Shown here piece after piece: positions 4,011 through 24,000 of a stretch of 24,000 nt of DNA. The notes below the pieces were generated by a model. The model saw only the letters and a program-made list of their open reading frames with translations, searched no databases and was not told where the DNA came from. Source of the DNA: Mangrovibacterium diazotrophicum (GTDB taxonomy: Bacteria; Bacteroidota; Bacteroidia; Bacteroidales; Prolixibacteraceae); assembly GCF_003610535.1 (NCBI RefSeq), contig NZ_RAPN01000001.1:955320-979319 (forward strand). The letters are read 5' to 3'. A program made the position numbers and the translations under genes. The stretch's first letter is position 1; each line of letters begins with the position of its first letter.

Positions 4011-4015
4011 TAAAT

Positions 4016-4447: not shown

Positions 4448-4468
4448 AACTACTAAACCAAAAATCAA

Positions 4469-8627: not shown

Positions 8628-11543
8628 ATGGAAACAAAGGTCCAATTGGGGACAGTCGTTTTTTGGCGACATACATTTGGATTCATTGCGATTGAGGATT
8701 TATCTCTCGCTTATTTTTTTCATCGCTCCTCTCTGCGCGATCCTAACCAACATGTAGAATTGCTCGATCAATTCGAGTTCGAAATAGCTGAAACAGACAC
8801 TGGCAAGTTTAAAGGGAAAGCGAGAGCTATCAATCTGCGATTTGTAGAGAAGGGGCGAGTCGACGATCCTCGCTTTGACCGATATGTTGGAACCTTGAAA
8901 TCATGGAATAAAGGTATTGGGCATATCACCACAGAACAGCTGATTGAAACTAGTGAAGTGTACGTTAACACATCTCGAATCCTCGGAGAGCGTCCTCATC
9001 TTTCTCAGGGCGAATTGCTTGTTTTCTGCCCTGTCCAATCTGCTAAATCCCCATCAAATATACTAGCATTGTTTGCATACCCAGTCGATTCCGAGAATGA
9101 CTTGTCCTTTTTAAAACAACAATATTTTGAGACAAGGATTCCTGAATTAGGAAATTATTTATTGAAACAATCAGAGCTAACAGACATTGATCTACAAATA
9201 ATTGAACTTTTCAGCATAGAACGGATAGAGGGGCGGAACATCGAGGGTTATGCAAAACTGAAAGAGGATCTAAAGCGTATTAAAGCGCAGTTTGGATACT
9301 TACCGCCATATAAAGATCTTTTAATTTTTGCAGATGAAGGCTTTTTATTGCAGCTCTTCATTGAAGGTATTATTCCTGACTTCCGATACGAAGATGTCTT
9401 ACATTATTTTCTAAACACAACGTCTATTCAAAAGAAAGAGATACTGTTTCGATTAAATCAGGATGACCAACAACAGATTATCAAAGAATATTTAAACTGG
9501 ATTAAAATCTATGTTGATCTAAATTCAATAGGAAACGAAATTAAGTGTTACCTCGATATTACACATCGTGATAAAAACCTAAAGGATGAAGCCGCATACC
9601 AAGGTCTTGCAGAGATCTTGCTTACAACTTTACCTGTAAGCGAGGTAAAAAAACTGTGGATCAAGAAATATATCGAATTACCACAAAAGTTTATCAAAGA
9701 CAATTTTGATTTAAGCAATCCATATGAAATAATTACATTGTTAGACTCTGAAGACGAGTCGCAAAAACAAATAGCAATCCGTTTGCTTAACGAACAAATA
9801 CTTGAGGTTACCGAGGGTGAAATTCTAAAAAACTATACTTACTACGTCGGCTGGTTAAAATTCATTCAAATCCACAATTCCAGACTATTCCACAAAGAGT
9901 TTACAGAAGCATTGAACGCGTTACCTATCCAGGATAAATATTGTCTGTGGATATTCGATATTTTGCCTTCAATCGACTATACCGCAATACCGCCCTTCGT
10001 CTTCGAGCAGTGTGACTACTATTTACGACTTAGGTCGGCAACCAAAGATCAATACTTTTCTTTCCTAACGAACCATATTGAACAAAATGAGCTGAACGAC
10101 TTTATTCAACAATACGCTTGGAATGAGTTGGTTCAACCCTGCTTCCCCAAAAGTGATACTACGTATTCGCTCTTAGTCGACATATGCGACTGGCAAAAGA
10201 AGTACCAGAATAATACGATTGAAATAGATCCATTAGCAGAGTGTGTTTATCACTCAATTCCAAAGTTTACTGTTCAACACGTTCGTTTGTGGCTTTATGA
10301 TTTTGTAAGCCCGGAGTATCTGGACTATTACGGCTTTCGAGAAGCCTTTAAAAAGTTAAACAATCCAGAAAAAGTCGAGTTCCGAAATAAAGCTAATTGG
10401 CACTCAAAACTTGAATTAGATGAAGAAGCAAAACTAACTGTTGAGCCTTGTACTAATTTCACAGAAACCGAAGATGGTGAGATAATTTACAAGGCTCGGC
10501 TAAATAACATTTATTTTACAAACGGATATTTAGCACTCCGGCTTGAAGATCGTAGCTACACCCAACGTTTTTATGCACCAGAGGTAAGCACAGGTCTGAA
10601 CTCAATAAGTGAATTTAGCAATTTAATTGATCGGGAAATAACAATCCTAGTACGTGAAAAACAGATCCAAAAAGTCGATGATAACCTCTACATAATTCTT
10701 TCCGAAGTTTTTCGGAATTATTTGCTAAAGGCGTTAGCTACTCCTATCGCAAAAAACAAAAAATCCAAGCGAAGCTATGCCTATGCAGAAAACATGGAAC
10801 TTCGGAAACAAGTTTTGAATTACCTAAAAATAATCCAGACGCCAGATAAAAAAACAGTCATATTGGACGAGCCACATGCTTACTATCGACGACTCGACGA
10901 ATCAGTTGAATTCCCCGACGTAGAAAAAGTTGCTCTTTATTCAATCAAAACCTCAGACGGATATGCAATTATCTGGGAAAACATAGATTACAGCTTCGAC
11001 CGAGCAAGCTTTGTTTTTAAAACCACAGATGAAAGCTATGGAAATCTTGTTGAAAAACTCACACTTGCTATTACCCGTTTGGGGCAACTACGCTCAACCT
11101 TGCGAAAACTAGATCCCGATATTAACGAACTACATGAGTTTAAAAACAGCTTAGGTTATGTCGGTACAGTTCTAAAAAAGAGGGGGCAAAACGATGCTTT
11201 TGAATCATGGAAAAACAATCTTACTGAGACTATCAATCGAAAAATACCTCCACAAACAGATCGTCTGTTTGACGAAATTTGGAGAGAACTTAATATAGAT
11301 TCAACCAAATCAGTAAGGCATACTAATCCTCTTCCTGATAAAAAAGGGATAAAGACTGTCGATACAGGAGAAGATAATTCGTCAACTAAAGAAGAAACAA
11401 TTGTGACGGAGAGAAACGATCAGCCCCCAGGTCAAACATCTAGTTTCTCAAACCAATCTCCATATAAGGAAAGGGAAGCAGTTTTATCAGCCTTAAACGA
11501 AATTAACAACCTATTTGAAAACCTACTAAAAATGAAAGAATGA
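8628..11543 (+). CDS. 971-aa protein with two N-terminal cold-shock-like (OB-fold) domains; the remaining ~800 aa are uncharacterised
   Basis: CSD 1 is GTVVFWRHTFGFIAIEDLSLAYFFHRSSL (RNP1-like HTFGFI, RNP2-like YFFHR). CSD 2 is YVGTLKSWNKGIGHITTEQLIETSEVYVNTSRIL...GELLVF. The long uninterrupted ORF has the island's composition. I could find no Walker, HNH, HEPN or clear PD-(D/E)xK motif. Confidence 0.75.
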   Translation: METKVQLGTVVFWRHTFGFIAIEDLSLAYFFHRSSLRDPNQHVELLDQFEFEIAETDTGKFKGKARAINLRFVEKGRVDDPRFDRYVGTLKSWNKGIGHITTEQLIETSEVYVNTSRILGERPHLSQGELLVFCPVQSAKSPSNILALFAYPVDSENDLSFLKQQYFETRIPELGNYLLKQSELTDIDLQIIELFSIERIEGRNIEGYAKLKEDLKRIKAQFGYLPPYKDLLIFADEGFLLQLFIEGIIPDFRYEDVLHYFLNTTSIQKKEILFRLNQDDQQQIIKEYLNWIKIYVDLNSIGNEIKCYLDITHRDKNLKDEAAYQGLAEILLTTLPVSEVKKLWIKKYIELPQKFIKDNFDLSNPYEIITLLDSEDESQKQIAIRLLNEQILEVTEGEILKNYTYYVGWLKFIQIHNSRLFHKEFTEALNALPIQDKYCLWIFDILPSIDYTAIPPFVFEQCDYYLRLRSATKDQYFSFLTNHIEQNELNDFIQQYAWNELVQPCFPKSDTTYSLLVDICDWQKKYQNNTIEIDPLAECVYHSIPKFTVQHVRLWLYDFVSPEYLDYYGFREAFKKLNNPEKVEFRNKANWHSKLELDEEAKLTVEPCTNFTETEDGEIIYKARLNNIYFTNGYLALRLEDRSYTQRFYAPEVSTGLNSISEFSNLIDREITILVREKQIQKVDDNLYIILSEVFRNYLLKALATPIAKNKKSKRSYAYAENMELRKQVLNYLKIIQTPDKKTVILDEPHAYYRRLDESVEFPDVEKVALYSIKTSDGYAIIWENIDYSFDRASFVFKTTDESYGNLVEKLTLAITRLGQLRSTLRKLDPDINELHEFKNSLGYVGTVLKKRGQNDAFESWKNNLTETINRKIPPQTDRLFDEIWRELNIDSTKSVRHTNPLPDKKGIKTVDTGEDNSSTKEETIVTERNDQPPGQTSSFSNQSPYKEREAVLSALNEINNLFENLLKMKE

Positions 11544-12460
11544 CTGAACAAGAAATAAACGAACAGTTAGAAAAGGAAGTTCTGCGACTGACAGCAATTT
11601 TGGACCAGGCTTCACTGTCTAGTACCATCAACAAACGAATATTTTTTGAGCAAAATCAACTCAACCAAGCGCTTGCAGAAATAGACACAACAGTGCAGGA
11701 ATTGGGATTAAAGATCTTAGACATTAGTAACTCTTTGAAATTAAAATCCGATGACGATGACAAGAAATTAGACTGGTTAAACGAGTCCTTCGATGATTTA
11801 AGGAAACTCAAAAAAGACTTAAACCTGCAAAGCACAAATTTAGCCAATGAGCTGAAAAAGGTCCAGAATAACATTGCCTTACTTTCCGCAAAAAATGAAG
11901 ATATTGAGAAAAAATTAATAGTTGCTGAAAATGGGATGAGTGAAACTGAAGAGAACACCTCAAAGATTCTTGAATTAAATAGAAAAATTGACAACGTTAT
12001 CGGCAAAAAGAATTATGCAACGAGTCTATTTTTTTCAGTCTTAGTAGTAGCTATAATAATTTTCTTCTTATGGAATACAAGGCTATCCAATTCTATTGAT
12101 GAGTACAAGGTTAGTACTATTACGTTCTCACAAAGCATTGCAAAGCAAAAAGCAAGAACCCAAGATTTAGAATCTCGTTTGAAAAAGATGGAAGAATTCC
12201 CAGATCCAATTCCCTCCAATACGATTGAATCAAATTCAATATCTATTTCCAAAGAACCTATTAAGATATCCCAATTAAAAGTACGAGCAACATTGTGGAA
12301 TGATAGTAACTTACCAAAAATGGAAAGCATTGAATCTTTTGATCAAGGTACCAAGGTCTATGTTTTAAGTGAGCCAATAAAAACTTATGATCGATCTATG
12401 ATCAAAGTAAGGATTGAAGGAAAAGAAGGTTATATATTTTCATCGTCCATATTTAAATAA
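11540..12460 (+). CDS. 306-aa coiled-coil / single-pass membrane / SH3b-like protein
   Basis: ATGA overlap with the upstream gene. Residues 1-155 are heptad-rich and charged (coiled coil). One hydrophobic helix ATSLFFSVLVVAIIIFFLW lies at aa ~160-178. The C-terminal ~60 aa are VRATLWNDSNLPKMESIESFDQGTKVYVLSEP...IKVRIEGKEGYIFSSSI, a pattern typical of bacterial SH3 (SH3_3) domains. Confidence 0.7.
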   Translation: MTEQEINEQLEKEVLRLTAILDQASLSSTINKRIFFEQNQLNQALAEIDTTVQELGLKILDISNSLKLKSDDDDKKLDWLNESFDDLRKLKKDLNLQSTNLANELKKVQNNIALLSAKNEDIEKKLIVAENGMSETEENTSKILELNRKIDNVIGKKNYATSLFFSVLVVAIIIFFLWNTRLSNSIDEYKVSTITFSQSIAKQKARTQDLESRLKKMEEFPDPIPSNTIESNSISISKEPIKISQLKVRATLWNDSNLPKMESIESFDQGTKVYVLSEPIKTYDRSMIKVRIEGKEGYIFSSSIFK

Positions 12461-12688
12461 CAAAACACAAAAGAACTGAACTTGCTCAAAGAATTTAGAT
12501 ATTTAATAGAAAAAACAAGCTCTATGGATGAAATCAGGCACCAATTATAGTCTAAATCGGTGCAATTCGGCCCTAAATATTTTCCTGTTTTATTCCTTTG
12601 TTTTCTCCAAAGAAAGAGTTAGTTACAAAAGTTGCATCACGGAAATTTTATGATTATTTTTATCTAAAGTAGACTCAAATAGAAAGCT

Positions 12689-12991
12689 ATGGCAAAAGGA
12701 GTAAAAACTGGTGGACGGAGCAAAGGGACCCCTAACAAGCTTACTGGAACGGTGAAAGAGATGATCCTTCAAGCAATTTCTATGGAAATTGAGAACTTGC
12801 CTGCGATTTTAAAGGAGCTTGAACCAAAAGAAAAAGCTGATTTTGTGATTAAGTTACTTCCTTACATCTTACCTAAAGCAAAAGAAGTGTCTGGTATGCA
12901 AGGGGGGTGGACCAGCTCTCACGATAGATTTGTTGAAGGTATCATGGAAAAGATGAGAAAGTCTCCTCCGCTGAAATCCACTGCAAGTTAG
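12689..12991 (+). CDS. Hypothetical 100-aa protein with basic Gly/Lys-rich N-terminus
   Basis: ATG ORF after a 228-nt AT-rich gap. The N-terminus MAKGVKTGGRSKGTPNKLTG resembles basic N-termini common in small phage/integrative-element proteins. This comparison is from memory and is not a family assignment. The ORF is followed by the terminator hairpin. Confidence 0.45.
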   Translation: MAKGVKTGGRSKGTPNKLTGTVKEMILQAISMEIENLPAILKELEPKEKADFVIKLLPYILPKAKEVSGMQGGWTSSHDRFVEGIMEKMRKSPPLKSTAS

Positions 12992-13051
12992 TGATTCAAT
13001 TTAGATCGGTTTTCCAAATCTTTGTATCCTATTTGTATCTTATGAAATACA

Positions 13052-13083
13052 AAAGCCTGATTATCAATCGACAATCAGGCTTT
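13052..13083. terminator. Bidirectional intrinsic-terminator-like hairpin
   Basis: Perfect 11-bp inverted repeat AAAGCCTGATT (13052-13062) / AATCAGGCTTT (13073-13083) with a 10-nt loop. The GC core is flanked by an A-run on one side and a T-run on the other. It lies between the 100-aa ORF stop and the tRNA 3' end. Confidence 0.5.
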
Positions 13084-13088
13084 ACAAG

Positions 13089-13162
<74 letters not shown>

Positions 13163-13230
13163 ATCCTTATTTTTGCTTTTGAAAACTGCGCTCGAAACCG
13201 AACGATCGACAGCTTTCTTAAAAGCGGTGG

Positions 13231-13238
13231 CAAAGATA
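13231..13238 (-). promoter_or_regulatory. Possible Bacteroidota -7 box (TATCTTTG on minus strand) upstream of tRNA-Arg
   Basis: The + strand CAAAGATA is the reverse complement of a TAnnTTTG match. It lies ~69 nt upstream of the tRNA 5' end. Confidence 0.3.
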
Positions 13239-13335
13239 TAAAAATATCAAAAAAACCAATACGACTTAATTTAATTTTTCGCTGTTTCTGCATCTGTTCC
13301 GACTTTCTTCACCAATTCGACCGGCCGGAATTTTA

Positions 13336-13343
13336 TACTTTTG
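13336..13343 (+). promoter_or_regulatory. Bacteroidota -7 box TACTTTTG upstream of the MFS gene
   Basis: Exact TAnnTTTG match ending 8 nt before the ATG at 13351. This implies a leaderless or near-leaderless transcript. Confidence 0.4.
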
Positions 13344-13350
13344 CAGCCGT

Positions 13351-14532
13351 ATGAGCAAAATGGTCCGCAACAATTTAATCAACCTCTACCTTATTAAGTT
13401 TGCCAAATGGTTCAATTTGGTCATGCCCGTGGTGGTCTTGTTCTACCAGGACAATGGCCTGAGCATGCAGCAAATTTTCCTACTGAAATCCATCTACTCC
13501 ATCGCGATGGTGTTGATGGAAATTCCGTCGGGTTACCTGGCAGATGTGTGGGGACGTAAGAAAACCCTGATCCTGGGTGGCTTTCTGGGAGCTGCCGGGA
13601 TGGCGGTATATAGTTTTTCCTATGGATTCTGGGCTTTTGCCGCCGCCGAAATCATTTTGGGTGTTGGCTACAGCTTTATTTCCGGCTCCGACTCTGCCCT
13701 ACTCTACGATACGCTGAAAGCCGCCGAGCGCGACAAGGAATACATCAAACAGGAAGGGTGGATTACCTCTGCCGGGAACTTTGCAGAAGCGATTGCTGGC
13801 GTTTGCGGCGGATTGCTGGCAACCATGAGTTTGCGACTGCCGTTTTATGTCCAATTTGGGATCGCATCGGTGGCCATACCTGCAGCCCTCTTATTGAAAG
13901 AACCGAGGTTACAATCCATCGAATTAAACAAAAGCTTCAAATCGACACTGAATACCGTTAAGGAAACCTTTCAGCATCCCTTGTTGAGATCGGCTTTGCT
14001 AGTGTCTTCCTTTGCGGGAACGGCCTCGCTTACCTTTGCCTGGTTTGTTCAGCCTTATTTTAAAGAAGCCCAGTTGCCCGTTTCCCTATTCGGGATTATG
14101 TGGACTTTGCTGAACCTGTCGGTCGGCGTTTCTTCCATGTTTTCCTACAAAATTGAAAACAAGCTGGGCCAACGAAACTCTTTACTGGTAATCATACTGG
14201 GATTTGCCATCGGCTTTTTCCTGGCGGCCTGGGAGGTCAGCCTGATTGGTATCGGCCTGCTGTTCTTTTTCTACCTCGTACGCGGGATTGCCCATCCAAT
14301 TCTGAAAGATTACATCAACCGCTACACCGATTCCGAAGTTCGGGCAAGCATCCTGTCAATTCGGAATTTCGTGATTCGAATCAACTTTGCCATTATTGGA
14401 CCGGCTTTGGGCTATTTAACCGACCAGTTCAGCCTGTCACTGGCGCTGATTGCCACAGGTACCGGATTCTTGGTATCAGCCTTGTTGAGTATGGGGCCGC
14501 TTTGGAAAGCGAATATTCAAAGATCCAACTGA
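13351..14532 (+). CDS. MFS transporter
   Basis: About 12 hydrophobic segments. The MFS motif A (G-x3-D-x2-G-R-K/R) is present as GYLADVWGRKKTLILG between TM2 and TM3. Confidence 0.85.
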   Translation: MSKMVRNNLINLYLIKFAKWFNLVMPVVVLFYQDNGLSMQQIFLLKSIYSIAMVLMEIPSGYLADVWGRKKTLILGGFLGAAGMAVYSFSYGFWAFAAAEIILGVGYSFISGSDSALLYDTLKAAERDKEYIKQEGWITSAGNFAEAIAGVCGGLLATMSLRLPFYVQFGIASVAIPAALLLKEPRLQSIELNKSFKSTLNTVKETFQHPLLRSALLVSSFAGTASLTFAWFVQPYFKEAQLPVSLFGIMWTLLNLSVGVSSMFSYKIENKLGQRNSLLVIILGFAIGFFLAAWEVSLIGIGLLFFFYLVRGIAHPILKDYINRYTDSEVRASILSIRNFVIRINFAIIGPALGYLTDQFSLSLALIATGTGFLVSALLSMGPLWKANIQRSN

Positions 14533-15296
14533 AGCCCGTCGTATGAGAGGTGGACGTTCTCGGGCAGGATTTTTTCAACCTCATCGTGCAAGCCCATCAG
14601 GTGCGAAATGTGCGTCAGATAAGCTGTTTTCGGCTTCACTTCGTCGATCAACTGCAATGCTTCTTCCAGGTTGAAGTGCGAAATGTGCTTCTCGATACGC
14701 AAAGCACCAACGACCAAAACATCCAGGTTCCTGAGTTTCTCCTTTTCTTCTTCCTCGACCCGGTTCACATCGGTTAGGTAAGCGAAATTGCCAAAGCGAA
14801 ATCCAAATACCGGCAGGCGATGGTGAAAACCACGGATCGGCAAAATATCCGTCGACTTGATATTGAATGCTTTATTTTCGAGTAAGTGAAGATTCATTTG
14901 CGGAATTCCCGGGTAGCGGTTCGGCTTAAAAACGTAGTCGAACACCCGTTTGATGGTGTCCTGCACCCTCTCCTCGGCATAAATATCCGTCGGGTGTCCC
15001 TGCACCCAATTGAACGCGCGAATATCATCCAGCCCAAATACATGGTCAACGTGTTCGTGTGTCAGGAGGATCGCATCCAAAGTCCGCTGCCTGATGCGCA
15101 ACATTTGCTGGCGAAAATCGGGCCCGGCATCAATCACCAGTTTCAAACCATCAATTTCAATGTATAAAGCCGAGCGCAACCGGTTGTCTTTCGGATTTTG
15201 CGACTGGCAAACCGGGCAATCACAGGCAACAACCGGCACTCCCTGCGAGGTTCCCGTTCCCAGAAATTCAATATGCATTTGCGGTGAGTTTTCCAT
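14517..15296 (-). CDS. MBL-fold metallo-hydrolase (PhnP-like family)
   Basis: The HxHxDH motif is LLTHEHVDHVFGLDD. The N-terminal IEFLGTGTSQGVPVVACDCPVCQS is typical of this family. The start is uncertain: the listed ORF starts with TTG at 15302, and ATG candidates lie at 15296 and 15278 (MHIEFLGTG). Confidence 0.85.
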   Translation of the reverse strand: MENSPQMHIEFLGTGTSQGVPVVACDCPVCQSQNPKDNRLRSALYIEIDGLKLVIDAGPDFRQQMLRIRQRTLDAILLTHEHVDHVFGLDDIRAFNWVQGHPTDIYAEERVQDTIKRVFDYVFKPNRYPGIPQMNLHLLENKAFNIKSTDILPIRGFHHRLPVFGFRFGNFAYLTDVNRVEEEEKEKLRNLDVLVVGALRIEKHISHFNLEEALQLIDEVKPKTAYLTHISHLMGLHDEVEKILPENVHLSYDGLQLDL

Positions 15297-15306
15297 GAGC
15301 AAGGCT

Positions 15307-15314
15307 CAAAACTA
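15307..15314 (-). promoter_or_regulatory. Possible -7 box (TAGTTTTG on minus strand) for the MBL hydrolase gene
   Basis: The + strand CAAAACTA is the reverse complement of a TAnnTTTG match, just upstream of the minus-strand start codons. Confidence 0.35.
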
Positions 15315-15353
15315 CAAAAAATAGAAATGACGAGGCTTTGCACTTAAATTAAT

Positions 15354-15361
15354 TAATTTTG
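15354..15361 (+). promoter_or_regulatory. -7 box TAATTTTG for the methyltransferase gene
   Basis: Exact TAnnTTTG match 16 nt upstream of the ATG at 15377. It overlaps the listed TTG start at 15359, so it argues for the 15377 start. Confidence 0.4.
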
Positions 15362-15376
15362 AAGAAAATTATTTCA

Positions 15377-16078
15377 ATGGCCAATTTGTACCTCATCCCG
15401 ATCACTCTCGGAGAAAGCGAACTTGAGTCGGTGATCCCCGCTACGCACCGCGAAATTATTCTTTCGATTTCACATTTTATTGTTGAAAATGTGCGCACAG
15501 CACGTCGTTTTCTGAAGAAGGTTGACCGGGAAATTGACATTGATAGCCTTCATTTTTACGAGCTCAATAAACACACCGACAAGAAACAACTGCACAGTTA
15601 CCTTGATCCATTGAAACAAGATCTTCACATTGGAATTATGTCCGAAGCTGGTTGCCCCGGAGTAGCTGATCCGGGAGCGGATGTTGTGCGTATTGCCCAC
15701 GAGAAAAACGTCAAAGTTGTGCCATTGGTAGGCCCGTCCTCCATCCTTTTAGCCATGATGGGCTCGGGCATGAACGGCCAAAACTTTGCCTTCAACGGCT
15801 ACCTGCCGATTCAAAAAAACGAGAAGGCACAACAGATCAAGTTGCTCGAAAAACGAATCTACACCGAAAACCAAAGCCAGTTGTTTATTGAAGCGCCCTA
15901 CCGTAACCTGCAATTGCTGGACGATCTGCTGCAAAATTGCCAGCCGCACACCAAGCTTTGCATCGCCTGCGACCTGACCTTGGAGACCGAATTCATCAAG
16001 ACACAATCGATCGAAGCCTGGAAAAAATCGAAACCGGATATCCAGAAACGACCAGCGATCTTTGTATTGGGCCAATAA
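15377..16078 (+). CDS. SAM-dependent methyltransferase, tetrapyrrole-methylase (TP_methylase) superfamily, RsmI-like
   Basis: Supporting matches are LYLIPITLGE..., SEAGCPGVADPGADVVRIAHEKNVKVVPLVGPSSILLAMMGSGMNGQNFAFNGYLP and LFIEAPYR. These fit the RsmI-type pattern (AG-P-DPG ... PGPSA ... F-GFLP). The listed ORF starts at TTG 15359; ATG 15377 is preferred. Confidence 0.8.
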   Translation: MANLYLIPITLGESELESVIPATHREIILSISHFIVENVRTARRFLKKVDREIDIDSLHFYELNKHTDKKQLHSYLDPLKQDLHIGIMSEAGCPGVADPGADVVRIAHEKNVKVVPLVGPSSILLAMMGSGMNGQNFAFNGYLPIQKNEKAQQIKLLEKRIYTENQSQLFIEAPYRNLQLLDDLLQNCQPHTKLCIACDLTLETEFIKTQSIEAWKKSKPDIQKRPAIFVLGQ

Positions 16079-16176
16079 ACCGATTCCCGCGCTAAGTTGA
16101 GCTGAATTTCAACGAATCGACAAGCGATTTCGTACACGACAGTATTACGGGAACAGCCGCAAATGGAACCAAACAA

Positions 16177-16184
16177 TATTTTTG
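16177..16184 (+). promoter_or_regulatory. -7 box TATTTTTG upstream of the radical SAM cluster
   Basis: Exact TAnnTTTG match 46 nt upstream of the ATG at 16230, inside a 151-nt intergenic gap. Confidence 0.4.
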
Positions 16185-16229
16185 TTCATTCCTTTTTGAC
16201 GCGTCGAAAGAAACCTGTAATATTAGGCG

Positions 16230-17600
16230 ATGAAAAAAAACCGAGACTACACCTTTCACGAGGCTACGACCAGCTTGTGCTCTGACTGCATGCAACGGAT
16301 TCCGGCGAAAATCGTGCTGAAAGACGGGCACGTTTTTTTGAAGAAATCCTGTCCTCAACACGGCATTCATTTTGAGTTGCTGGAGGAAGATGCCGATTAC
16401 CACTTGGCGAAAAGACGCTACGACAAACCTGGAACTTTTACCACAGCTCAAACCAGTATCCGGAAAGGTTGCCCCTACGACTGCGGACTCTGCCCGGATC
16501 ATGATCAACATACCTGTATCGGACTCATCGAAGTTACCAACCAATGCAATCTGAACTGCCCGGTTTGCTTTGCAAATAGCGGCAAAGAGGAATTCCTTAC
16601 ACTGGAGCAGATTGACCAGATCCTGGATAAATACATTGCGTTGGAAAACGGCGATGCAGAGATCCTGCAAATCAGTGGTGGCGAGCCGACTGTTCATCCT
16701 CAAATTCTCGAGATTATTCAGCTGGCACTGTCCAAAAAAATCCGTTTTGTGATGCTGAATACCAACGGGGTGAGAATAGCGTCGGATAAGGAATTTGCAC
16801 GGCAGTTGAGCCAGTTCAAAGAGCGCTTTGAGGTTTACCTGCAGTTCGATGGTTTCAAGGAATCGACTCACCGGCATTTCCGCGGAAAGGACCTTCGCGC
16901 GGTTAAGCAGAAAGCCATTGATAATTTACTGGAAGAAGGCGTCCCGGTCACTTTGGTTTCAACCGTTGAAAATGGAATTAATGACGACGAGTTGGGACCG
17001 ATTGTTGAATTTGGCATGAATCGAAAAGGAATTCGTGGCGTCAGTTTCCAGCCTGTAAGCTATTTCGGACGGATTGATTCAACAGCCAACATCAAACGAA
17101 GCACACTCTCCGGAATTATCAAACAGCTGGAGTCACAGCTCAGCTCTGTGTTTAAACCCGGAGACATTATTCCGTTGCCCTGCAATGTGGAGCGCGTAGC
17201 TATTTCGTATCTCATCAAGGACAAGAAAGGCCGTTTCACACCGCTGCCCCGAACTATAAAAGTTGACAGTTACCTGCCGGTTATCGAAAACACCTTTGCC
17301 TTCGATGCCGAGCGTTTTGTCAACGAGCAAGTTCGCCACATCCAGAATAACCTGCAACTGTGCGATTGTTTCAAACTCGTCAACGATATTTACAAATACA
17401 TTCCCCGAAACTACAAGCTAAAATCGGCCGAAGACCAAAAGAATTTCATCGATGAAAATACCTTTCGGATCAGCATCACCTCGTTCCTGGACAAACACAA
17501 CTTCGATCTGAAATCAGCGCAAAAGGAATGTGTTCACATCCTGACACCCGATTTAAAGCGAATGCCATTTTCAACCTATAACCTGTTGTACCGAAAATGA
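16230..17600 (+). CDS. Radical SAM enzyme with N-terminal zinc-ribbon/rubredoxin-like knuckle and auxiliary Cys cluster
   Basis: The radical SAM motif is CNLNCPVCFA (CxxxCxxC). GGEPT is present as a SAM-binding motif. The upstream auxiliary motif is CPYDCGLCPDHDQHTC. The N-terminal knuckle is CSDCMQRIPAKIVLKDGHVFLKKSCPQHG. Confidence 0.85.
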   Translation: MKKNRDYTFHEATTSLCSDCMQRIPAKIVLKDGHVFLKKSCPQHGIHFELLEEDADYHLAKRRYDKPGTFTTAQTSIRKGCPYDCGLCPDHDQHTCIGLIEVTNQCNLNCPVCFANSGKEEFLTLEQIDQILDKYIALENGDAEILQISGGEPTVHPQILEIIQLALSKKIRFVMLNTNGVRIASDKEFARQLSQFKERFEVYLQFDGFKESTHRHFRGKDLRAVKQKAIDNLLEEGVPVTLVSTVENGINDDELGPIVEFGMNRKGIRGVSFQPVSYFGRIDSTANIKRSTLSGIIKQLESQLSSVFKPGDIIPLPCNVERVAISYLIKDKKGRFTPLPRTIKVDSYLPVIENTFAFDAERFVNEQVRHIQNNLQLCDCFKLVNDIYKYIPRNYKLKSAEDQKNFIDENTFRISITSFLDKHNFDLKSAQKECVHILTPDLKRMPFSTYNLLYRK

Positions 17601-18187
17601 TGAACCAGGTATCCGATATCACCATCCTGATTTGTCTGTTGGCACTTTTCATCGCCATCCTCATCAATTTCGTGGAGCGAAACAAAAAGGTTCAGACTGA
17701 AAAGAAAAGCATTGTTGAAACCGGCTCGATGACGGGCTTTTTCATCTTTTTCTACCTGCTGATCCGCTTTAAAATCGGGGACCTTCAGCTTCCGGAAACA
17801 GCTGCACTTATTCTCAAACCCATCGGTTTGCTTCTGGTTATCGCCGGAACCTACATCAATATTCGCAGCCGCAAAACATTGGGTGCGAATTGGGCCAACC
17901 AGGTCACCCTTTACACCGATCAACAGGTGGTTTGCTCGGGTATGTATAAATACATCCGCCACCCGCTTTACAGCTCCATCATTGCCATGTTTTACGGAGC
18001 CTGCCTGGTGTACCCGAACTACCTGGCATTTGCAGCCAACACCCTCATCTTCGTCCCTTTCATGTACTATCGGGCCAGGCAGGAGGAAAATCTGCTCCGG
18101 AAACGTTTGCCCGGTTACGAAGAGTACAGACGAAAAACCGGTTTATTCATTCCTAAACTGATTAAAAATGAAAGCAATTCCAATTAA
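17597..18187 (+). CDS. Integral-membrane methyltransferase of the ICMT/PEMT (isoprenylcysteine carboxyl / phospholipid methyltransferase) family
   Basis: ATGA overlap with the radical SAM gene. There are multiple TM helices. The C-terminal signature is LVCSGMYKYIRHPLYSS...YRARQEENLLRKRLPGYEEYRRKTGLFIP. Confidence 0.8.
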   Translation: MMNQVSDITILICLLALFIAILINFVERNKKVQTEKKSIVETGSMTGFFIFFYLLIRFKIGDLQLPETAALILKPIGLLLVIAGTYINIRSRKTLGANWANQVTLYTDQQVVCSGMYKYIRHPLYSSIIAMFYGACLVYPNYLAFAANTLIFVPFMYYRARQEENLLRKRLPGYEEYRRKTGLFIPKLIKNESNSN

Positions 18188-18587
18188 TGCATTTCGCTTT
18201 TGCAAAATAACGGTCACCCTGCTGGTTTGGCTGGCCTTTGCCTTCCAATCAATGCCACTACTGGTGATCGTGTTCTTGATCCTCGGATTATCAGCCCTGT
18301 TGAAAATTCAGCGGGCACCTCTGATAGTCCTGTATTCATTCACGATCGAAAGAATTATTCCCTCGCGAATGAAAGAAGTACACGAAACAGGCCTTCGCTT
18401 TGCGCACAGTTTGGGCACGGTGCTTTGTGCGATTTGCATCGCCTTGACAGTACTCTTTCCAACCGTTGGCTGGTGGTATGTGCTGGCATTTGCTGTTTTA
18501 AAAACGGTGTCGATGCTTGGCCTGTGCCCGGGTGAAGCCATGTATTCCTGTTACGCAGAAGGGAGCTGCAGTATTTTCAAAAAATGA
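18168..18587 (+). CDS. Small ~4-TM membrane protein (DUF4395-like; assignment from memory only)
   Basis: 20-nt overlap with the upstream gene and ATGA overlap with the downstream gene. It has four hydrophobic segments and a Cys-containing C-terminus GLCPGEAMYSCYAEGSC. Confidence 0.55.
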   Translation: MKAIPINAFRFCKITVTLLVWLAFAFQSMPLLVIVFLILGLSALLKIQRAPLIVLYSFTIERIIPSRMKEVHETGLRFAHSLGTVLCAICIALTVLFPTVGWWYVLAFAVLKTVSMLGLCPGEAMYSCYAEGSCSIFKK

Positions 18588-19366
18588 TCGACAATCACAC
18601 ATTCCCGGCAAATTGGGGAATTTTCCCCGTCATCTTTCGAATTGGCAAACTCGAAGTCAGTTCCTACTCCTTCTTTGTGCTGCTTGGGTTGATTGTCGGG
18701 CTCTCCGTTTATTTCCTCCTCGCCAGACGCTACAAACAAGCCAGCGAGAACTCATTCTATGTGGTTGTTGCCGGCGTTGTTGGCGGTATTTTGGGAGCCA
18801 AACTCCCTTACTGGATTTTCAACTACCAGGTCATCGTGGAAAACTACCCGAATATCGGCCCCATTCTTTCCGGGCGAACCATTACCGGCGGACTGATTGG
18901 CGGTACTTTGTCGGTTATCTACATCAAACGCCGGCTGGGAATTACCGATAAAAAAGGCAATCTGTTTGCACCGGCCATTGCTATTGGCGTGGCCATTGGC
19001 CGACTCGGATGCTTTGCCCGTGGCTGCTGCTATGGCGAGCCAACCACTTTGCTCTGCGGAGTCAATTTCGGAGATGATGTTCTGCGCCACCCGACTCAAC
19101 TCTACGAAACGGTATTCTTCATTGGATTCTTCATCTACAGCCTGATCCGGATAAAAAGTGCGCCACCGGGATTTCTGTTTTATGCGCTTATGAACAGCTA
19201 CTTCATCCTTCGTTTTTTCGAAGAATTTATCCGCTACAACGACCAGTTCTTTTGGGGGCTTTCCTTCTTTCAATACATCTCAATTGTCGCTGTCGTCTTT
19301 ATCAACCTGAAACAATACCTTGAAAAAACTCAACATCATGGAAGACTATTATCAACAAAAAGGTAG
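18584..19366 (+). CDS. Prolipoprotein diacylglyceryl transferase (Lgt) family protein, divergent paralogue
   Basis: The Lgt hallmarks HPTQLYE and the GR-loop are present, the latter as the Cys-rich variant GRLGCFARGCCYGEP. The protein is polytopic. Confidence 0.8.
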   Translation: MIDNHTFPANWGIFPVIFRIGKLEVSSYSFFVLLGLIVGLSVYFLLARRYKQASENSFYVVVAGVVGGILGAKLPYWIFNYQVIVENYPNIGPILSGRTITGGLIGGTLSVIYIKRRLGITDKKGNLFAPAIAIGVAIGRLGCFARGCCYGEPTTLLCGVNFGDDVLRHPTQLYETVFFIGFFIYSLIRIKSAPPGFLFYALMNSYFILRFFEEFIRYNDQFFWGLSFFQYISIVAVVFINLKQYLEKTQHHGRLLSTKR

Positions 19367-19649
19367 AAAGGTCATAGATTTTCTACTTGGTTTCATTATG
19401 AATTTTGGAATCGCGCTGGCCGTCATGTTTGGCCTCGGAATTCTATTCGTTGCGGGCCTGGCAACAGTCAAACTCACACATATTCTGATTATTTCCATTA
19501 CCATCATCGGTTTGACGCTTTTGGAAATTTCCATTATCCGGAAGTACTTAAAACAACGTCGGTACATCGCAATCGGGCTGATTGTCGGGATTGTATTCCC
19601 GCTCTTGGTCGTGGGAACCTGCTCGCCGCTCATCTTTTCACTGACCTAA
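19338..19649 (+). CDS. Small 3-TM membrane protein, hypothetical
   Basis: The ATG at 19338 (MEDYYQQKG...) is preferred over the listed TTG at 19320. It overlaps the Lgt-like gene's 3' end by 29 nt. Three hydrophobic helices. Confidence 0.45.
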   Translation: MEDYYQQKGRKVIDFLLGFIMNFGIALAVMFGLGILFVAGLATVKLTHILIISITIIGLTLLEISIIRKYLKQRRYIAIGLIVGIVFPLLVVGTCSPLIFSLT

Positions 19650-19852
19650 ATCGTCCGGGAAAATTCACCCCCGGACATGCTGAAATGACCGGAAATATTT
19701 GGACTGAGTGCATAATTGTTCGTACTCATTTTTCGATACGCTTCGTTATACGGAAACTTCCAATAGGCATTCGCGTAAGTTAATTATTGAAGACTTTAAA
19801 CTCTCTTTTTCTTATTCTTAACAGTTTGCGATTCACCTTCAATATTAAACTT

Positions 19853-20668
19853 ATGGTATTGCTGATGTCTACATTTACAGTCGTTGTCATTATTGTCGGC
19901 GGCATCATCTTTTTTGTGTGGTTGGGATCCGTAGTGGTGCAATACTTCAGTCACTTGGCTGTTGTCGGTTGCGATGTACCTGTAGTGGTGATGTATCTGG
20001 GAGAAAAGGATAGTGTTAAAGGCTTCCTGTTGGAAAAGCCTCGGTACACGACTCAATTTTCGGGTGTAAACGGGAAACTGGAATTCTTTCGTGACAAAGA
20101 TTTCTACCGGCTGAGTGATCCTCCTGAAAACCTTGGGATCACGCTCATTCAAACGACAGGAACGAATAATCCGGCTGTTCAGGAATTGCATGGACTTCAG
20201 GTTGGGCAAGGTGAATTAACAATCTCGGTCGACCCGGCCGATTCGCGGGATTTCAAGGAAATCTATGTTCCGGTTTTTGTGATCGATCCTGCAACTACCG
20301 GCTTCCTCATTCTAATCCGAAAAGCTGCACACGAGGCCGGTAAAAAATGGTACCACGGTGCAACCGGTAATTTCTTTCCCAATTTCTTCGGAGGACAATG
20401 TCGGGGGCTTTGCGACCAATGGGCAGACTGGCTAGGCGGCTGGATGATCCGGCATAATGATGGGACAATTTGTAAAATTGAAAAAGTGGTTTACAATACC
20501 ACTAAAACGGGATTCAGACACGTAGCTCTTCGAATCACCATCTGTGAGTCGGGTCATGTTTATTACGTCGATGGGCATAAAAATCCGGATAATCCGGTGG
20601 TTCCTGGTGCCGATTACGAACAGAAGCATGGAGTACCGGAGACCCACTATGAAATTTGGAGCCAATAA
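19853..20668 (+). CDS. Membrane-anchored hypothetical protein; possible C-terminal Cys/His (papain/CHAP-like) domain
   Basis: The listed ORF starts with TTG at 19787. The in-frame ATG at 19853 gives MVLLMSTFTVVVIIVGGIIFFVWLGSVVV, a signal anchor. The C-terminal region contains FFGGQCRGLCDQWADWL, FRHVALRI and GHVYYVDGH. Confidence 0.55.
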   Translation: MVLLMSTFTVVVIIVGGIIFFVWLGSVVVQYFSHLAVVGCDVPVVVMYLGEKDSVKGFLLEKPRYTTQFSGVNGKLEFFRDKDFYRLSDPPENLGITLIQTTGTNNPAVQELHGLQVGQGELTISVDPADSRDFKEIYVPVFVIDPATTGFLILIRKAAHEAGKKWYHGATGNFFPNFFGGQCRGLCDQWADWLGGWMIRHNDGTICKIEKVVYNTTKTGFRHVALRITICESGHVYYVDGHKNPDNPVVPGADYEQKHGVPETHYEIWSQ

Positions 20669-20805
20669 ACCTGCTTGCTGCTTTTTTAAAAATTGAAAAG
20701 CGACTATTTCGACATTTGCAATTGTCACTTTCCGCTTTTGCAAGAATGATTAAGTTTTAGCAAATCTCAGGCAATCTCGTATATTTAGGCGATTAAACCC
20801 TGAAT

Positions 20806-22035
20806 ATGCAATTTTTCCAAAAGCTCAAAGACCTCGGGCCGGGCGTGCTGGTCACCGCCGCATTCATCGGGCCGGGAACAATAACCACCTGTACTTTAGC
20901 CGGAGCCAATTATGGCTATGTCCTTTTGTGGGGACTAACCTTTAGTATTTTGGCTACGATCGTATTGCAGGAGAAAGCTGCGCGCTTGGGCTTGGTTACC
21001 CGCATGGGCCTGGGCGAAGCCGTTCGACAACAGTTTGCAAACCCGGCGATGCAATACCTGGCGATCGCCCTCGTGCTTTCGGCTATTTTAGTTGGAAATG
21101 CAGCCTACGAAACTGGCAACATCCTTGGTGCTGCCTTGAGTTTGGAAGAACTATCCGGTTTATCCACTATCCCAATCGGAAACCTGAACCTGAAAATCTG
21201 GGGGCCGGTGATTGGTTTGCTTGCCTGGCTGATCCTGGAACTGGGAAGTTACAAAAGCCTTGAGAAGTTCATCATCGGGCTGGTCATCCTCATGAGCCTG
21301 ACCTTTATTACCACAGCCTTTTTTATTCAACCTGACCTGTGGGCTATTCTGAAGGGCATGTTTGTACCGGCGATACCTGAAGGTTCGTTTGTTTTCGTCA
21401 TGGGGCTAATTGGAACAACCGTAGTACCCTACAACCTGTTTTTGCATGCCTCGGCTGTGCAGGAACGCTGGAAAAGCGCCTCCGATCTGGGCAAAGCCCG
21501 CACGGACCTGTCAACGGCTGTGATCCTTGGAGGATTGATTTCAATGTCGATCGTCATCACAGCAGCGATGACTTTTCACGGGCACGCGGTTTCCATTACA
21601 GGAGCCGGAGATCTGGCCGAACAACTTGAACCGTTGCTCGGGAACTGGGCCCGCATTTTCATGTCGCTTGGCTTGTTCGCAGCCGGTATTTCGTCGGCCA
21701 TCACCGCACCCTTGGCTGCCGCCTACGCCACTTCCGGAATATTGGGATGGAAGGCTGGCTTTGGCGATCTCCGCTTCAAACTCGTTTGGCGATCTGTCCT
21801 TTTAATCGGCATCGTTTTCTCGCTTTTGGGTTACAAACCCATCCAGGCAATCTTGTTTGCTCAAATCGCGAACGGCCTTTTGTTGCCGTTCATCGCCATA
21901 TTCTTAGTGATTGTCATGAATAACAAAAAATTGCTGAGCGTGCATGCCAATAACCGCTGGCAAAACATCACAGCAATTATCGTTGTTGTGGTGGCCATTG
22001 CGCTGGGATTAAAAAGTATTGTAAGTTTGCTGTGA
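20806..22035 (+). CDS. Nramp-family membrane transporter (YcsG-like, pxp-operon associated)
   Basis: The N-terminal Nramp pattern is GPGVLVTAAFIGPGTITTCTLAGANYGYVLLWGL...LQEKAARLGLVT. About 11 TM segments. The stop overlaps the pxpA start (ATGA-type, 22032-22035). Confidence 0.85.
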   Translation: MQFFQKLKDLGPGVLVTAAFIGPGTITTCTLAGANYGYVLLWGLTFSILATIVLQEKAARLGLVTRMGLGEAVRQQFANPAMQYLAIALVLSAILVGNAAYETGNILGAALSLEELSGLSTIPIGNLNLKIWGPVIGLLAWLILELGSYKSLEKFIIGLVILMSLTFITTAFFIQPDLWAILKGMFVPAIPEGSFVFVMGLIGTTVVPYNLFLHASAVQERWKSASDLGKARTDLSTAVILGGLISMSIVITAAMTFHGHAVSITGAGDLAEQLEPLLGNWARIFMSLGLFAAGISSAITAPLAAAYATSGILGWKAGFGDLRFKLVWRSVLLIGIVFSLLGYKPIQAILFAQIANGLLLPFIAIFLVIVMNNKKLLSVHANNRWQNITAIIVVVVAIALGLKSIVSLL

Positions 22036-22796
22036 TGAAAATTTTGCATGTAGATTTGAATTGTGACCTGGGTGAAGGAATCGGCAACGATGCTGCAGTA
22101 ATGCCTTTTATTTCATCTGCAAATATTGCTTGTGGCTACCATGCAGGCAATGAAATGACCATGCGCGAGACTGTGCTTCTGGCGAAAAAATGTGGCGTGA
22201 GTATTGGGGCACATCCGGGCTACGATGACAAGACCAACTTTGGCCGCACGCCGATGGATTTAACAGCTAGTGAAGCTGAAGAGCTGGTATTTAAGCAGAT
22301 CAAAAAATTACAGAAAATCGCCGAATCCGAAGGCTGTAAGCTGACACATGTGAAGCCGCACGGTGCATTGTACAACCAGGCAGCAATAGACATTAATTTG
22401 GCCAGTGCGATTGCCAGAGCAATCTACAAAGCCGATCCGAAACTGCTTTATGTCGGGTTGGCCAACTCGCAAATGGGCGAAGCTGCAAAAGCGTTTCAAC
22501 TTCAGTTCGTGTCCGAGGTATTTGCCGACAGGGCCTACACGGACGAAGGCCAGCTGGTTTCCCGGCAACTCGACGGAGCTGTGATCCACGATCCGGTAAG
22601 CTGCACCTCCCGAGTTCTACAAATGGTAACGCTTGGAACCGTTGAGAGCATCGGTGGGAAACGAATCGCCATTCAGGCGGACAGTATTTGCATCCATGGC
22701 GACAACCCAGAAGCGATTGCCCTGGCCAAAGCCATTCACGATGCATTGGTCGCAAACGACCTAAAGATCGAACCAATCACGACCACACATGATTAG
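22032..22796 (+). CDS. pxpA: 5-oxoprolinase subunit A (LamB/YcsF family)
   Basis: The family N-terminus is HVDLNCDLGEGIGNDAAVMPFISSANIACGYHAGN, followed by GAHPGY and VKPHGALYN. Confidence 0.9.
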   Translation: MMKILHVDLNCDLGEGIGNDAAVMPFISSANIACGYHAGNEMTMRETVLLAKKCGVSIGAHPGYDDKTNFGRTPMDLTASEAEELVFKQIKKLQKIAESEGCKLTHVKPHGALYNQAAIDINLASAIARAIYKADPKLLYVGLANSQMGEAAKAFQLQFVSEVFADRAYTDEGQLVSRQLDGAVIHDPVSCTSRVLQMVTLGTVESIGGKRIAIQADSICIHGDNPEAIALAKAIHDALVANDLKIEPITTTHD

Positions 22797-23472
22797 CTAT
22801 TTCCCCTTGGGAGACTCGGCCATCCAACTCACCTTCGGCGACTCGATTAACGAAGAAACCAATCGGAAAATCTACGCCTACATGCGGATTTTAAAGGAGT
22901 TTGAAATTCCGGGAATCATCGAACTGGTACCGTCTTATACGAAACTGATCGTTCATTACAACCCACTCGAAATCGGAATTCACGAACTGGTGGATAAACT
23001 GAAAGAGCTGGAACAACAAGGTATAACACCAGCTGAAAGCGAAATGAAAATTGTCGAAATTCCGGTGTTGTACGGGCCAACTTTCGGCAGCGATTTGGAG
23101 GTGGTGCTGCAACATACCGGGCTGACTGAAGAAGAATTGATTACCCAACACAGCGCACCGATTTACAAAGTTTATATGCTCGGCTTCACACCCGGATTTT
23201 GCTATTTGGGAGGAATGCCTGCCCTGTTGGCGACTCCGCGCAAAAAAACGCCCTCAGCCAAAATTCGGGCAGGCTCGGTGGGTATTGCCGGCGAGCAAAC
23301 AGGTGTCTATCCCATCGAAAGCCCCGGAGGATGGCAGATTATTGGACGAACACCACTTAAGCTTTTCAATCCCGAGCGTGAGCAACCGTTTCTGGTTGAA
23401 GCCGGGAACAGCATTCGCTTCTACCCCATCAGCCAAACAGAGTTTGACCAATTAAATGAGTACGATGCGTAA
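22789..23472 (+). CDS. pxpB: 5-oxoprolinase subunit B (KipI / allophanate hydrolase subunit 1 family)
   Basis: Supporting matches are GFTPGFCYLGGMPALLATPRKKTP...GSVGIAGEQTGVYPIESPGGWQIIGRTPLKLF. 8-nt overlap with pxpA. Confidence 0.9.
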   Translation: MISYFPLGDSAIQLTFGDSINEETNRKIYAYMRILKEFEIPGIIELVPSYTKLIVHYNPLEIGIHELVDKLKELEQQGITPAESEMKIVEIPVLYGPTFGSDLEVVLQHTGLTEEELITQHSAPIYKVYMLGFTPGFCYLGGMPALLATPRKKTPSAKIRAGSVGIAGEQTGVYPIESPGGWQIIGRTPLKLFNPEREQPFLVEAGNSIRFYPISQTEFDQLNEYDA

Positions 23473-24000
23473 AATCCGGATCATTCAAAAAGGACTGCTC
23501 ACCACCATTCAGGATGCCGGGCGACTTGGCTACCAGCAATATGGTATGCCTGTTTCCGGCGCGATGGATTTGGTGTCGTTGCGCCTGGCCAATCTGCTGG
23601 TTGGAAATTCGCCGGATGAAGCCTGCCTGGAAACAACTTTCCTGGGGCCCGAAATTGAATTCCTTGCGGATGCGGAAATCGCCGTTTGCGGTGCTGAAAC
23701 AGACCTGCGATTGAATGGTTCTCCCATTGCTTTAAACTGCAACCATCGGATCTGCCGAGGCGATATGCTGAAACTGGGAACCTGCAAGCGCGGCTTGCGG
23801 AATTACATCGCCTTTGCTGGAGGGCTGGACGTTCCGGTCGTCATGGGCAGCAAATCGACCTACCTGAGAGGTAAACTGGGAGGCTGGCAAGGGCGAGCGC
23901 TCGAGAATGGCGATGTGCTTCCTCTTGGTGAAGCGCGTCCGTTTCAACAAAGAAGCTTGACGGATAATCCGACTTGTTTACCGCAACCAACCAACGAAAT
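23465..24000 (+). CDS. pxpC: 5-oxoprolinase subunit C (KipA / allophanate hydrolase subunit 2 family), 3' end beyond window
   Basis: This ORF is not in the supplied track because it has no stop in the window. I translated it by hand from the ATG at 23465: MRKIRIIQKGLLTTIQDAGRLGYQQYGMPVSGAMDLVSLRLANLLVGNSPDEACLETTFLGPEIEF... It stays open to nt 24000 and overlaps the pxpB stop by 8 nt. Confidence 0.85.
   Translation, partial: MRKIRIIQKGLLTTIQDAGRLGYQQYGMPVSGAMDLVSLRLANLLVGNSPDEACLETTFLGPEIEFLADAEIAVCGAETDLRLNGSPIALNCNHRICRGDMLKLGTCKRGLRNYIAFAGGLDVPVVMGSKSTYLRGKLGGWQGRALENGDVLPLGEARPFQQRSLTDNPTCLPQPTNE

Follow-up and report, generated by a model that had tools for sequence, protein, structure and literature searches.

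The locus described here lies in a 24,000-nucleotide stretch of the Mangrovibacterium diazotrophicum genome (assembly GCF_003610535.1, contig NZ_RAPN01000001.1, positions 955,320 to 979,319 of the forward strand), referred to as the window, in which a radical S-adenosylmethionine (SAM) enzyme, an integral membrane methyltransferase, a DUF4395 membrane protein, a paralogue of Lgt and a small membrane protein with three transmembrane (TM) helices are encoded one after another (Table 1). The first two genes are joined by an ATGA at 17597-17600, the ATG of the DUF4395 gene lies 20 nt within the methyltransferase gene, a further ATGA at 18584-18587 joins the DUF4395 gene to the Lgt paralogue, and the small-protein gene shares 29 nt with the Lgt gene. 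An earlier reading made from the letters alone (the sequence-only reading) had described five coupled open reading frames (ORFs) with exactly these four junctions, and our analysis recovered all of them, on the + strand, at the same positions. Its family assignments (radical SAM, PEMT/ICMT and LGT) also hold, while the protein that it described only as a 4-TM protein is a member of DUF4395 and the fifth protein matches no family. The five-gene order, which recurs in other genomes, is called type A below; two further layouts that retain the radical SAM and Lgt-like genes are called types B and C, and the radical SAM enzymes of the three layouts are referred to as clades A, B and C.

Table 1. 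Coordinates of the cassette features in the window and of the extended DUF4395 copies at other loci.
Feature	Length (aa)	Coordinates	Strand	Family or remark
Radical SAM enzyme	456	16230..17600	+	Tes / GDGT-MAS / TrsS superfamily, cassette clade A; PF23545 + PF04055
ICMT/PEMT-family integral membrane SAM-dependent methyltransferase	196	17597..18187	+	PF04191, PF04140
DUF4395 membrane protein	139	18168..18587	+	PF14340
Lgt paralogue	260	18584..19366	+	PF01790; extra copy besides housekeeping lgt
Small three-TM protein	103	19338..19649	+	Probable lipidation substrate
TGC codon of Cys95, small protein		19620..19622	+	Invariance from alignments
TATTTTTG, match to TAnnTTTG-type Bacteroidota promoter box		16177..16184	+	Ends 45 nt before first ATG
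DUF4395 copy with N-terminal extension		L019:7949-8428
DUF4395 copy with N-terminal extension		L024:8080-8625
DUF4395 copy with N-terminal extension		L026:5502-5996
DUF4395 copy with N-terminal extension		L027:5516-5995

The small protein carries the feature that most clearly points to a function. Its last helix reads RKYLKQRRY-IAIGLIVGIVFPLLVVGT-C-SPLIFSLT, and L90, G93 and C95 were invariant in an alignment of 13 cassette-encoded small proteins. Pfam and NCBIfam scans returned no family match for it, and a profile search recovered 70 database relatives, all of them unnamed and without Pfam domains. Across 80 unique sequences the motif L-L-x-x-G-[A/T/S]-C contained the Cys in every case (80/80) and Gly at -2 in 100%, with Leu at -5 and -6 in 95-97%, the value for -5 being 97%, and A, T or S at -1 in 94%. 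None of the 80 sequences had a charged residue between -17 and -1, the stretch before this held at least two K/R (mean 4.75), and the tail after the Cys comprised 6-15 residues, with 7 or 8 in 65 of the 80. Judged by this pattern of residues, the C-terminal helix has the architecture of a lipoprotein signal peptide, with a basic n-region, a hydrophobic h-region, small residues and a Cys. Lgt transfers diacylglyceryl from phosphatidylglycerol and acts at the outer face of the membrane, which is where the positive-inside rule would place the small-protein Cys. Because of its invariant, C-terminal, lipobox-like Cys, the small protein is probably a lipidation substrate; the sequence-only reading had listed the fifth gene as one more membrane protein and missed this residue.

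As a classical prolipoprotein the small protein does not qualify, since two TM helices come before its motif, which occupies residues 90-95 of 103 and is followed by only 8 residues. Compared with lipoprotein maturation as known from Lgt (5AZB), LspA and Lnt, the cassette has a protein with the Lgt fold and conserved Lgt residues, and a small protein in which the invariant Cys comes after a basic stretch, an uncharged helix and residues that are small. It differs in that the putative signal peptide forms the final helix, the third, of a membrane protein of about 100 aa with 6-15 residues beyond the Cys, in the invariant Gly at -2, in an Lgt that is an extra copy scoring under the TIGR00544 cut-off and carrying N146C, E151C and H103T (E. 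coli numbering, as throughout), and in the company of a radical SAM enzyme, a methyltransferase and DUF4395.

The small-protein gene stands directly 3' of the Lgt paralogue in 18 of the 19 type A loci for which downstream sequence was available, the exception being L028. Whereas the window genome has a single gene of this kind, tandem copies are present at other loci, two each in L017 and L027 and five in L023, where paralogues of 110-121 aa (L023:9269-11126) follow the Lgt paralogue of a DPANN-type archaeon. Over the 30 residues that precede the Cys these five share 50% identity, and beyond it 15%. The conserved leader, variable tail and five copies of L023 might be read as traits of a precursor of ribosomally synthesised and post-translationally modified peptides; no protease or exporter is encoded in the cassette.

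The Lgt paralogue belongs to the LGT family (PF01790, 121.4 bits, cut-off 24.9) and falls below the cut-off of the equivalog model TIGR00544 (78.8 bits, cut-off 118.9). Its AlphaFold2 model (mean predicted local distance difference test, pLDDT, 78.7) had one significant match in the PDB, which was E. coli Lgt (5AZB; E=1.3e-8, TM-score 0.64), with the next-best match at E=0.1, and the protein retains counterparts of E. coli Y26, R143, G154, R239 and E243 together with the HPxQxYE motif. The sequence-only reading had argued that this is not the housekeeping lgt and had suggested looking for a canonical copy elsewhere in the genome. Such a copy was found at C1:489897-490631, scoring 238 bits on the Pfam model versus 121 for the cassette copy, which bears out the conclusion. 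Other hosts likewise combine a canonical Lgt (214-259 bits) with a paralogue (85-143 bits), and an Actinobacteria HGW metagenome-assembled genome (MAG; G349, locus L029) has three LGT-family genes of 254, 136 and 127 bits, one of which is the cassette paralogue.

The reason that had been given for a non-housekeeping role, namely the Cys-rich loop (GRLGCFARGCCYGEP in the window protein), did not survive. A GCFxxGCCYG loop is also present in the only Lgt gene of one Elusimicrobia genome (199 bits) and of one Nitrospirota genome (237 bits), and because these sole Lgts score like canonical ones and carry the same loop, the loop appears compatible with true Lgt activity; we rejected it as a marker of new function. 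A parallel to the paralogue is MSMEG_5408, the second Lgt homologue of M. smegmatis, which is also an extra copy with N146C and differs in having Y26H where the window paralogue keeps Y26. That protein is non-essential, and a preference for a different lipid substrate has been speculated for it (10.1101/2025.01.07.631728; 10.1101/2025.03.27.645668). This unexplained second Lgt copy may be related.

The radical SAM enzyme combines an N-terminal zinc ribbon, a GCPYDCGLCPDH auxiliary-cluster motif and a CNLNCPVC radical SAM motif, with Pfam matches to Zn_ribbon_HMPTM (PF23545) and Radical_SAM (PF04055); its nearest named homologue, from Mangrovibacterium marinum, is 81% identical. A phmmer alignment with the GDGT-MAS (Tes) of M. 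jannaschii (7TOL; also 7TOM) covered the full length (residues 10-455, E=7e-76), and the zinc-ribbon Cys, the GCPYDCGLCP-H and CNLNCP-C (CxxxCxxC) motifs and a conserved C-terminal segment are common to both. On the NCBIfam Tes model (NF045702) the window enzyme scored 298.7 bits, below the equivalog cut-off of 450. It further differs from Tes in forming a clade of its own, which has co-diversified with an Lgt-like partner, and in its hosts, which are bacteria with ester lipids, whereas archaeal Tes works without such partners (PMC8941075). The best-scoring named model was TrsS (NF045646, a radical SAM (seleno)protein), matched over nearly its full length at 351.1 bits with a cut-off of 490; since its ORF is open, the window enzyme requires no selenocysteine codon. 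TrsS was reportedly described by Haft and Tolstoy in 2025 (cited in PMC13188914). Other enzymes of clades A, B and C scored 260-337 bits on the Tes model, and none of the three clades reached the Tes or the TrsS cut-off. By these profile scores the window enzyme is a relative of both Tes and TrsS and a member of neither. The sequence-only reading was correct in calling it a radical SAM enzyme, described there as multi-cluster, but had not recognised its kinship with Tes/GDGT-MAS.

The two remaining proteins could be placed at the level of family. The methyltransferase matched PF04191 (46.8 bits) and PF04140 (46.5 bits), both with cut-offs of 24-25, and its best solved relative was the M. acetivorans ICMT 4A2N (E=1.7e-9, residues 63-189), the alignment spanning the cofactor-binding half with its RHPxY and EE..L...Y..Y motifs. 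On the isoprenylcysteine O-methyltransferase equivalog NF040696 it scored 74.4 bits with a cut-off of 160, and its matches to the LmtA, PEMT and MddA (methanethiol S-methyltransferase) models were weak and far below the cut-offs. In CaaX processing a near-C-terminal Cys receives a thioether-linked lipid, and ICMT then methylates the carboxyl group. The cassette resembles this eukaryotic and archaeal system in co-encoding a near-C-terminal Cys, a lipid transferase and an ICMT-family methyltransferase. It departs from it in having an Lgt-type transferase rather than a soluble prenyltransferase, 6-15 residues after the Cys rather than three, no CaaX protease, and a Cys that is predicted on the non-cytoplasmic side.

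The DUF4395 protein matched PF14340 with 54.4 bits (cut-off 24.5), and C12, H80, C120, C128 and C134 were invariant in an alignment of 14 cassette copies. Its AlphaFold2 model (pLDDT 87.5) is a four-helix membrane bundle with a C-terminal Cys-rich helix, for which a search of the PDB gave no significant fold match (best E=1.1); weak Pfam matches (YgaP-like_TM, E=0.04; TMEM70) were far below the cut-offs and were dismissed. Copies in Candidate Phyla Radiation (CPR) bacteria and DPANN archaea have an N-terminal extension with an extra C-x-x-C (SCQNCSTD or SCKTCSTD) that is lacking in the Bacteroidota and Clostridia copies.

We found the order radical SAM, ICMT, DUF4395, Lgt, small protein in about 20 independent loci, with different flanking genes in every case. 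These include a genome of the same genus (G001), a Bacteroidota-like metagenomic contig, where the cassette lies beside nusA-infB genes, the CPR bacterium ACD_18C, a 3.7-Mb Firmicutes-like contig, where it lies beside a hydrogenase gene, one Clostridia-like and two DPANN archaeal contigs, two further Bacteroidota genomes, and nine named genome records (Nanoarchaeota, Magasanikiibacteriota, Woesearchaeota, an Actinobacteria MAG, three Bacteroidales including Lentimicrobium, a Clostridiaceae and an Eubacteriales). The occurrence is rare and patchy, with the cassette present in 3 of 6 genomes of the window's own genus and in 3 of 301 Bacteroidota genomes sampled evenly. In both the radical SAM and the Lgt-like trees the window genes are closer to the CPR/DPANN copies than to those of other Bacteroidales, one of them a genome from the same order, which indicates that the unit has been transferred horizontally. 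The gene-order comparison thus upholds the sequence-only reading in its claim of a conserved, dedicated unit. Of the lipid- or lipoprotein-tailoring pathway that it proposed, the dedicated unit stands, but the Lgt-like/Tes-like core went unrecognised.

Lgt homologues have been stated to be absent or unidentified in archaea (PMC12462473; 10.1101/2025.03.27.645668). The copies that we found in DPANN archaea depart from this and were probably gained together with the cassette. The record labelled 'Nanoarchaeota archaeon' (L026/G346, 1.5 Mb) also encodes a canonical Lgt (246 bits) and LspA (118 bits), so that it represents either a bin misassigned to or mixed with a bacterium or a DPANN archaeon with a bacterial lipoprotein pathway.

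Searches with the Lgt paralogue brought up the other two layouts. In type B, a radical SAM gene of a sister clade is immediately preceded by an Lgt-like gene whose loop reads GRIGCFLTGLxDxTYG, in hosts that comprise Acidobacteriota, Paenibacillus, Cohnella, Neobacillus, Heyndrickxia, Dyella, Oleiagrimonas, Cylindrospermum and Tepidisphaeraceae; in type C, found in Planctomycetaceae, Gemmataceae and Pirellulales, the radical SAM gene precedes the Lgt-like gene. The ICMT and DUF4395 genes are restricted to type A. When Bacteroidota were searched with the radical SAM enzyme alone, an Lgt-like gene adjoined 18 of the 20 loci (2 of 2 type A and 16 of 18 type B). The radical SAM and Lgt-like trees contain the same three layout-specific clades, with support of 98-100 in the Shimodaira-Hasegawa-like approximate likelihood ratio test (SH-aLRT), and the patristic distances of the two type A proteins are correlated (r=0.78, Mantel test, 0 of 2000 permutations as high). 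Because the sequences are related and hence not independent, these figures describe co-inheritance and co-transfer and not function.

Many type B loci also have a small membrane protein right after the radical SAM gene, ending in LL[N/V/T][A/G][A/G/T]C and a short tail. These proteins were found by a motif scan without a strict G-x-C requirement, and a profile built from the type A small proteins recognised 7 of 17 of them. The Lgt-like, Tes-like and small-protein genes form the older core of the cassette. In three Acidobacteriota type B loci (L034, L035 and L052) small ORFs lie between the Lgt-like and radical SAM genes (e.g. L035:6795-7046), with a Cys motif (LGAGSC) after the first hydrophobic segment and not the last, which may be a variant placement of the substrate motif.

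The explanation that we prefer, to which we assign a probability of about one half, is that the cassette is a dedicated system for protein S-lipidation, with the radical enzyme remodelling the lipid. The small protein would insert with its N-terminus and basic loop in the cytoplasm, and its third helix would present the invariant Cys at the outer face of the membrane in the manner of a prolipoprotein lipobox. The Lgt paralogue would then transfer a glyceryl-lipid, by analogy diacylglyceryl from phosphatidylglycerol, to the thiol. From the cytoplasmic face, the Tes/GDGT-MAS-like enzyme would apply radical C-H chemistry to hydrocarbon tails, either those of the donor lipid or those of the lipid bound to the protein. 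For Tes, two lipids are joined where their tails meet in the middle of the bilayer (PMC8941075; PMC13459092); by analogy, tail-to-tail C-C coupling could here yield a possibly macrocyclic or membrane-spanning anchor. The ICMT-like enzyme would act at the cytoplasmic leaflet and methylate an acidic or nucleophilic group linked to a lipid, and DUF4395, with its four invariant Cys and one His, might provide a membrane dock, a thiol site or a metal site for one of these steps. The cell's housekeeping Lgt and LspA are separate from the cassette, and LspA might possibly cut before the lipidated Cys and free a lipopeptide of 7-16 residues. One lspA is present in the window genome and LspA was detected in 4 of 5 other host genomes tested, none being found in the Woesearchaeota MAG, a 0.6-Mb assembly that may be incomplete; this distribution neither supports nor excludes cleavage.

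Several observations weigh against S-lipidation by this cassette. The topology is awkward, with Lgt chemistry and the target Cys at the outer leaflet and both SAM-dependent enzymes at the cytoplasmic face; the exposed Cys tail therefore cannot simply be the substrate of the latter, which more plausibly modify the lipid rather than the peptide tail. With Thr at -1 and Gly at -2, the window motif is an atypical lipobox. No small Cys gene lies near type A locus L028, nor near many of the Bacteroidota type B loci. Tes-type chemistry is in this setting an analogy, because no radical SAM clade reaches the NCBI Tes cut-off. Finally, N146 and E151 are replaced by Cys and H103 by Thr in the Lgt paralogue, and all three residues are implicated in E. 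coli Lgt catalysis. MSMEG_5408, with its N146C, has been described with 'presumed low Lgt activity' (10.1101/2025.03.27.645668). The Cys variants need not abolish activity, to judge from the genomes compared, because the same variants occur in the sole Lgt of two of them; CC and CD replacements of N146/E151 have also been recorded in distant Lgts (10.1101/2025.03.27.645668).

That some type B loci have no detectable small Cys protein would fit if the cassette served membrane-lipid remodelling pure and simple. The Tes-like enzyme would then make membrane-spanning or macrocyclic bacterial lipids, as hypothesised for glycerol dialkyl glycerol tetraethers of the branched kind (brGDGTs), the Lgt-like protein would bind or hand over phosphatidylglycerol-type lipids or lipidate a non-protein acceptor, the methyltransferase would alter a head group, and the small protein would be a structural subunit whose Cys has another role. 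The full-length homology of the radical SAM enzyme to GDGT-MAS fits well with this, as does the proposal that bacterial Tes homologues make brGDGTs (PMC8941075); type B pairs are, moreover, common in Acidobacteriota and in Planctomycetota, both of which have been considered as phyla that supply brGDGTs (PMC11868695), and enzymes of the ICMT/PEMT fold also methylate lipids, as the weak LmtA and PEMT matches recall. We nevertheless consider this alternative unlikely. It leaves unexplained why, in 18 of 19 type A loci, a signal-peptide-like helix with an invariant lipobox-like Cys is encoded beside an enzyme of the Lgt fold and why the small-protein gene is multiplied in tandem with a variable tail, and it sits poorly with an archaeal Tes that needs no Lgt-like partner (PMC8941075) and with a cassette that is common in CPR/DPANN, genomes reported to be without lipid synthesis (PMC11868695). 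The tandem paralogues of L023, with their conserved leader and variable tail (50% versus 15% identity), would suit a ribosomal lipopeptide factory, which is a special case of the S-lipidation system. Here the small protein would be a precursor with a membrane-embedded leader, and S-lipidation followed by a cut before the Cys, by signal peptidase II or another protease, would release a lipopeptide of 7-16 residues, possibly methyl-esterified, as for example a signal or envelope component. The small residues at -1 that signal peptidase II requires, the short tails (mostly 7-8 aa) and the LspA of the window genome and of most other hosts tested are in line with such a product. Set against these are the lack of a protease or exporter in the cassette, the LspA-negative Woesearchaeota MAG, the Thr at -1 in the window motif and a C-terminus outside the cell, out of reach of the SAM-dependent methyltransferase, and we regard release of a lipopeptide as distinctly improbable.

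Least probable of all, and in our view very improbable, is a membrane complex for handling thiols, metals or metalloids, in which the invariant Cys of the Lgt-like C..CC loop and of the small protein, with the four Cys and one His of DUF4395, would form a relay or metal site, and the substrate of the radical SAM enzyme and the methyltransferase would be no lipid but a small compound of sulfur, selenium or a metalloid. This possibility draws on TrsS as the nearest NCBIfam model of the radical SAM enzyme, on the MddA match of the methyltransferase and on the faint likeness of the C-terminal CP..Y..C segment of DUF4395 to the YgaP-like TM domain (E=0.04). The weak matches, however, fall well short of their cut-offs, the C..CC loop also occurs outside the cassette, the Lgt-like protein retains its fold together with the arginines that bind lipid phosphate, and the surroundings of the small-protein Cys are those of a signal peptide rather than of a metal site.

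If the S-lipidation system is real, it would represent a second, substrate-dedicated branch of Lgt-type protein lipidation and would for the first time connect protein lipidation with radical chemistry of the Tes type on lipid tails. A broader version, which we advance as a rather doubtful conjecture, holds that many bacterial Tes homologues act, together with an Lgt paralogue, on the lipid anchors of dedicated small membrane proteins and not on free membrane-spanning lipids, giving a near-C-terminal Cys a new kind of thioether-linked glycerolipid, remodelled by radical chemistry and perhaps macrocyclic or bilayer-spanning, in a system exchanged between bacteria and DPANN. The reading of bacterial Tes homologues, which surveys use as markers of branched-GDGT producers, would also change if the S-lipidation system is real, given that 18 of the 20 sampled Bacteroidota loci adjoin an Lgt-like gene. 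Lgt-family genes would be placed in DPANN archaea, contrary to two recent papers (PMC12462473; 10.1101/2025.03.27.645668), and both DUF4395 and the unexplained second Lgt copies of many genomes would gain a working context. No paper in the literature that we searched describes the cassette or its small proteins or connects a gene of the Lgt family with a Tes-like radical SAM gene, and the preprint on Lgt diversity (10.1101/2025.03.27.645668) makes no mention of radical SAM. The idea is directly testable because cultured hosts exist, for type A Mangrovibacterium marinum, Clostridium bowmanii, C. lacusfryxellense and related strains, and for type B Paenibacillus, Cohnella, Neobacillus, Dyella and Oleiagrimonas.

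Outside the five genes, the TAnnTTTG box pointed out in the sequence-only reading is indeed present upstream of the first gene, but the motif is no commoner in the window than chance allows (17 matches observed versus 22 expected from shuffled sequences), which makes it weak evidence. TATTTTTG is compatible with a Bacteroidota promoter, a role for which its position alone weakly speaks. A scan for terminators and sigma-70 promoters gave matches only inside genes, with no convincing terminator 3' of 19649. Directly 5' of the cassette and on the same strand, a 239-aa ORF (15359-16078) had no significant Pfam match even at E<=1. On the other side, a 293-aa membrane-anchored protein (19787-20668) matched no Pfam, NCBIfam or other family and was rejected as a member of the cassette, the same-genus genome having PPK2 at that position. 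The GC content of the window is 34-42% in positions 1-13000 and 43-52% in 13001-24000; the cassette lies within this GC-richer right part and is not conspicuous against it in composition.

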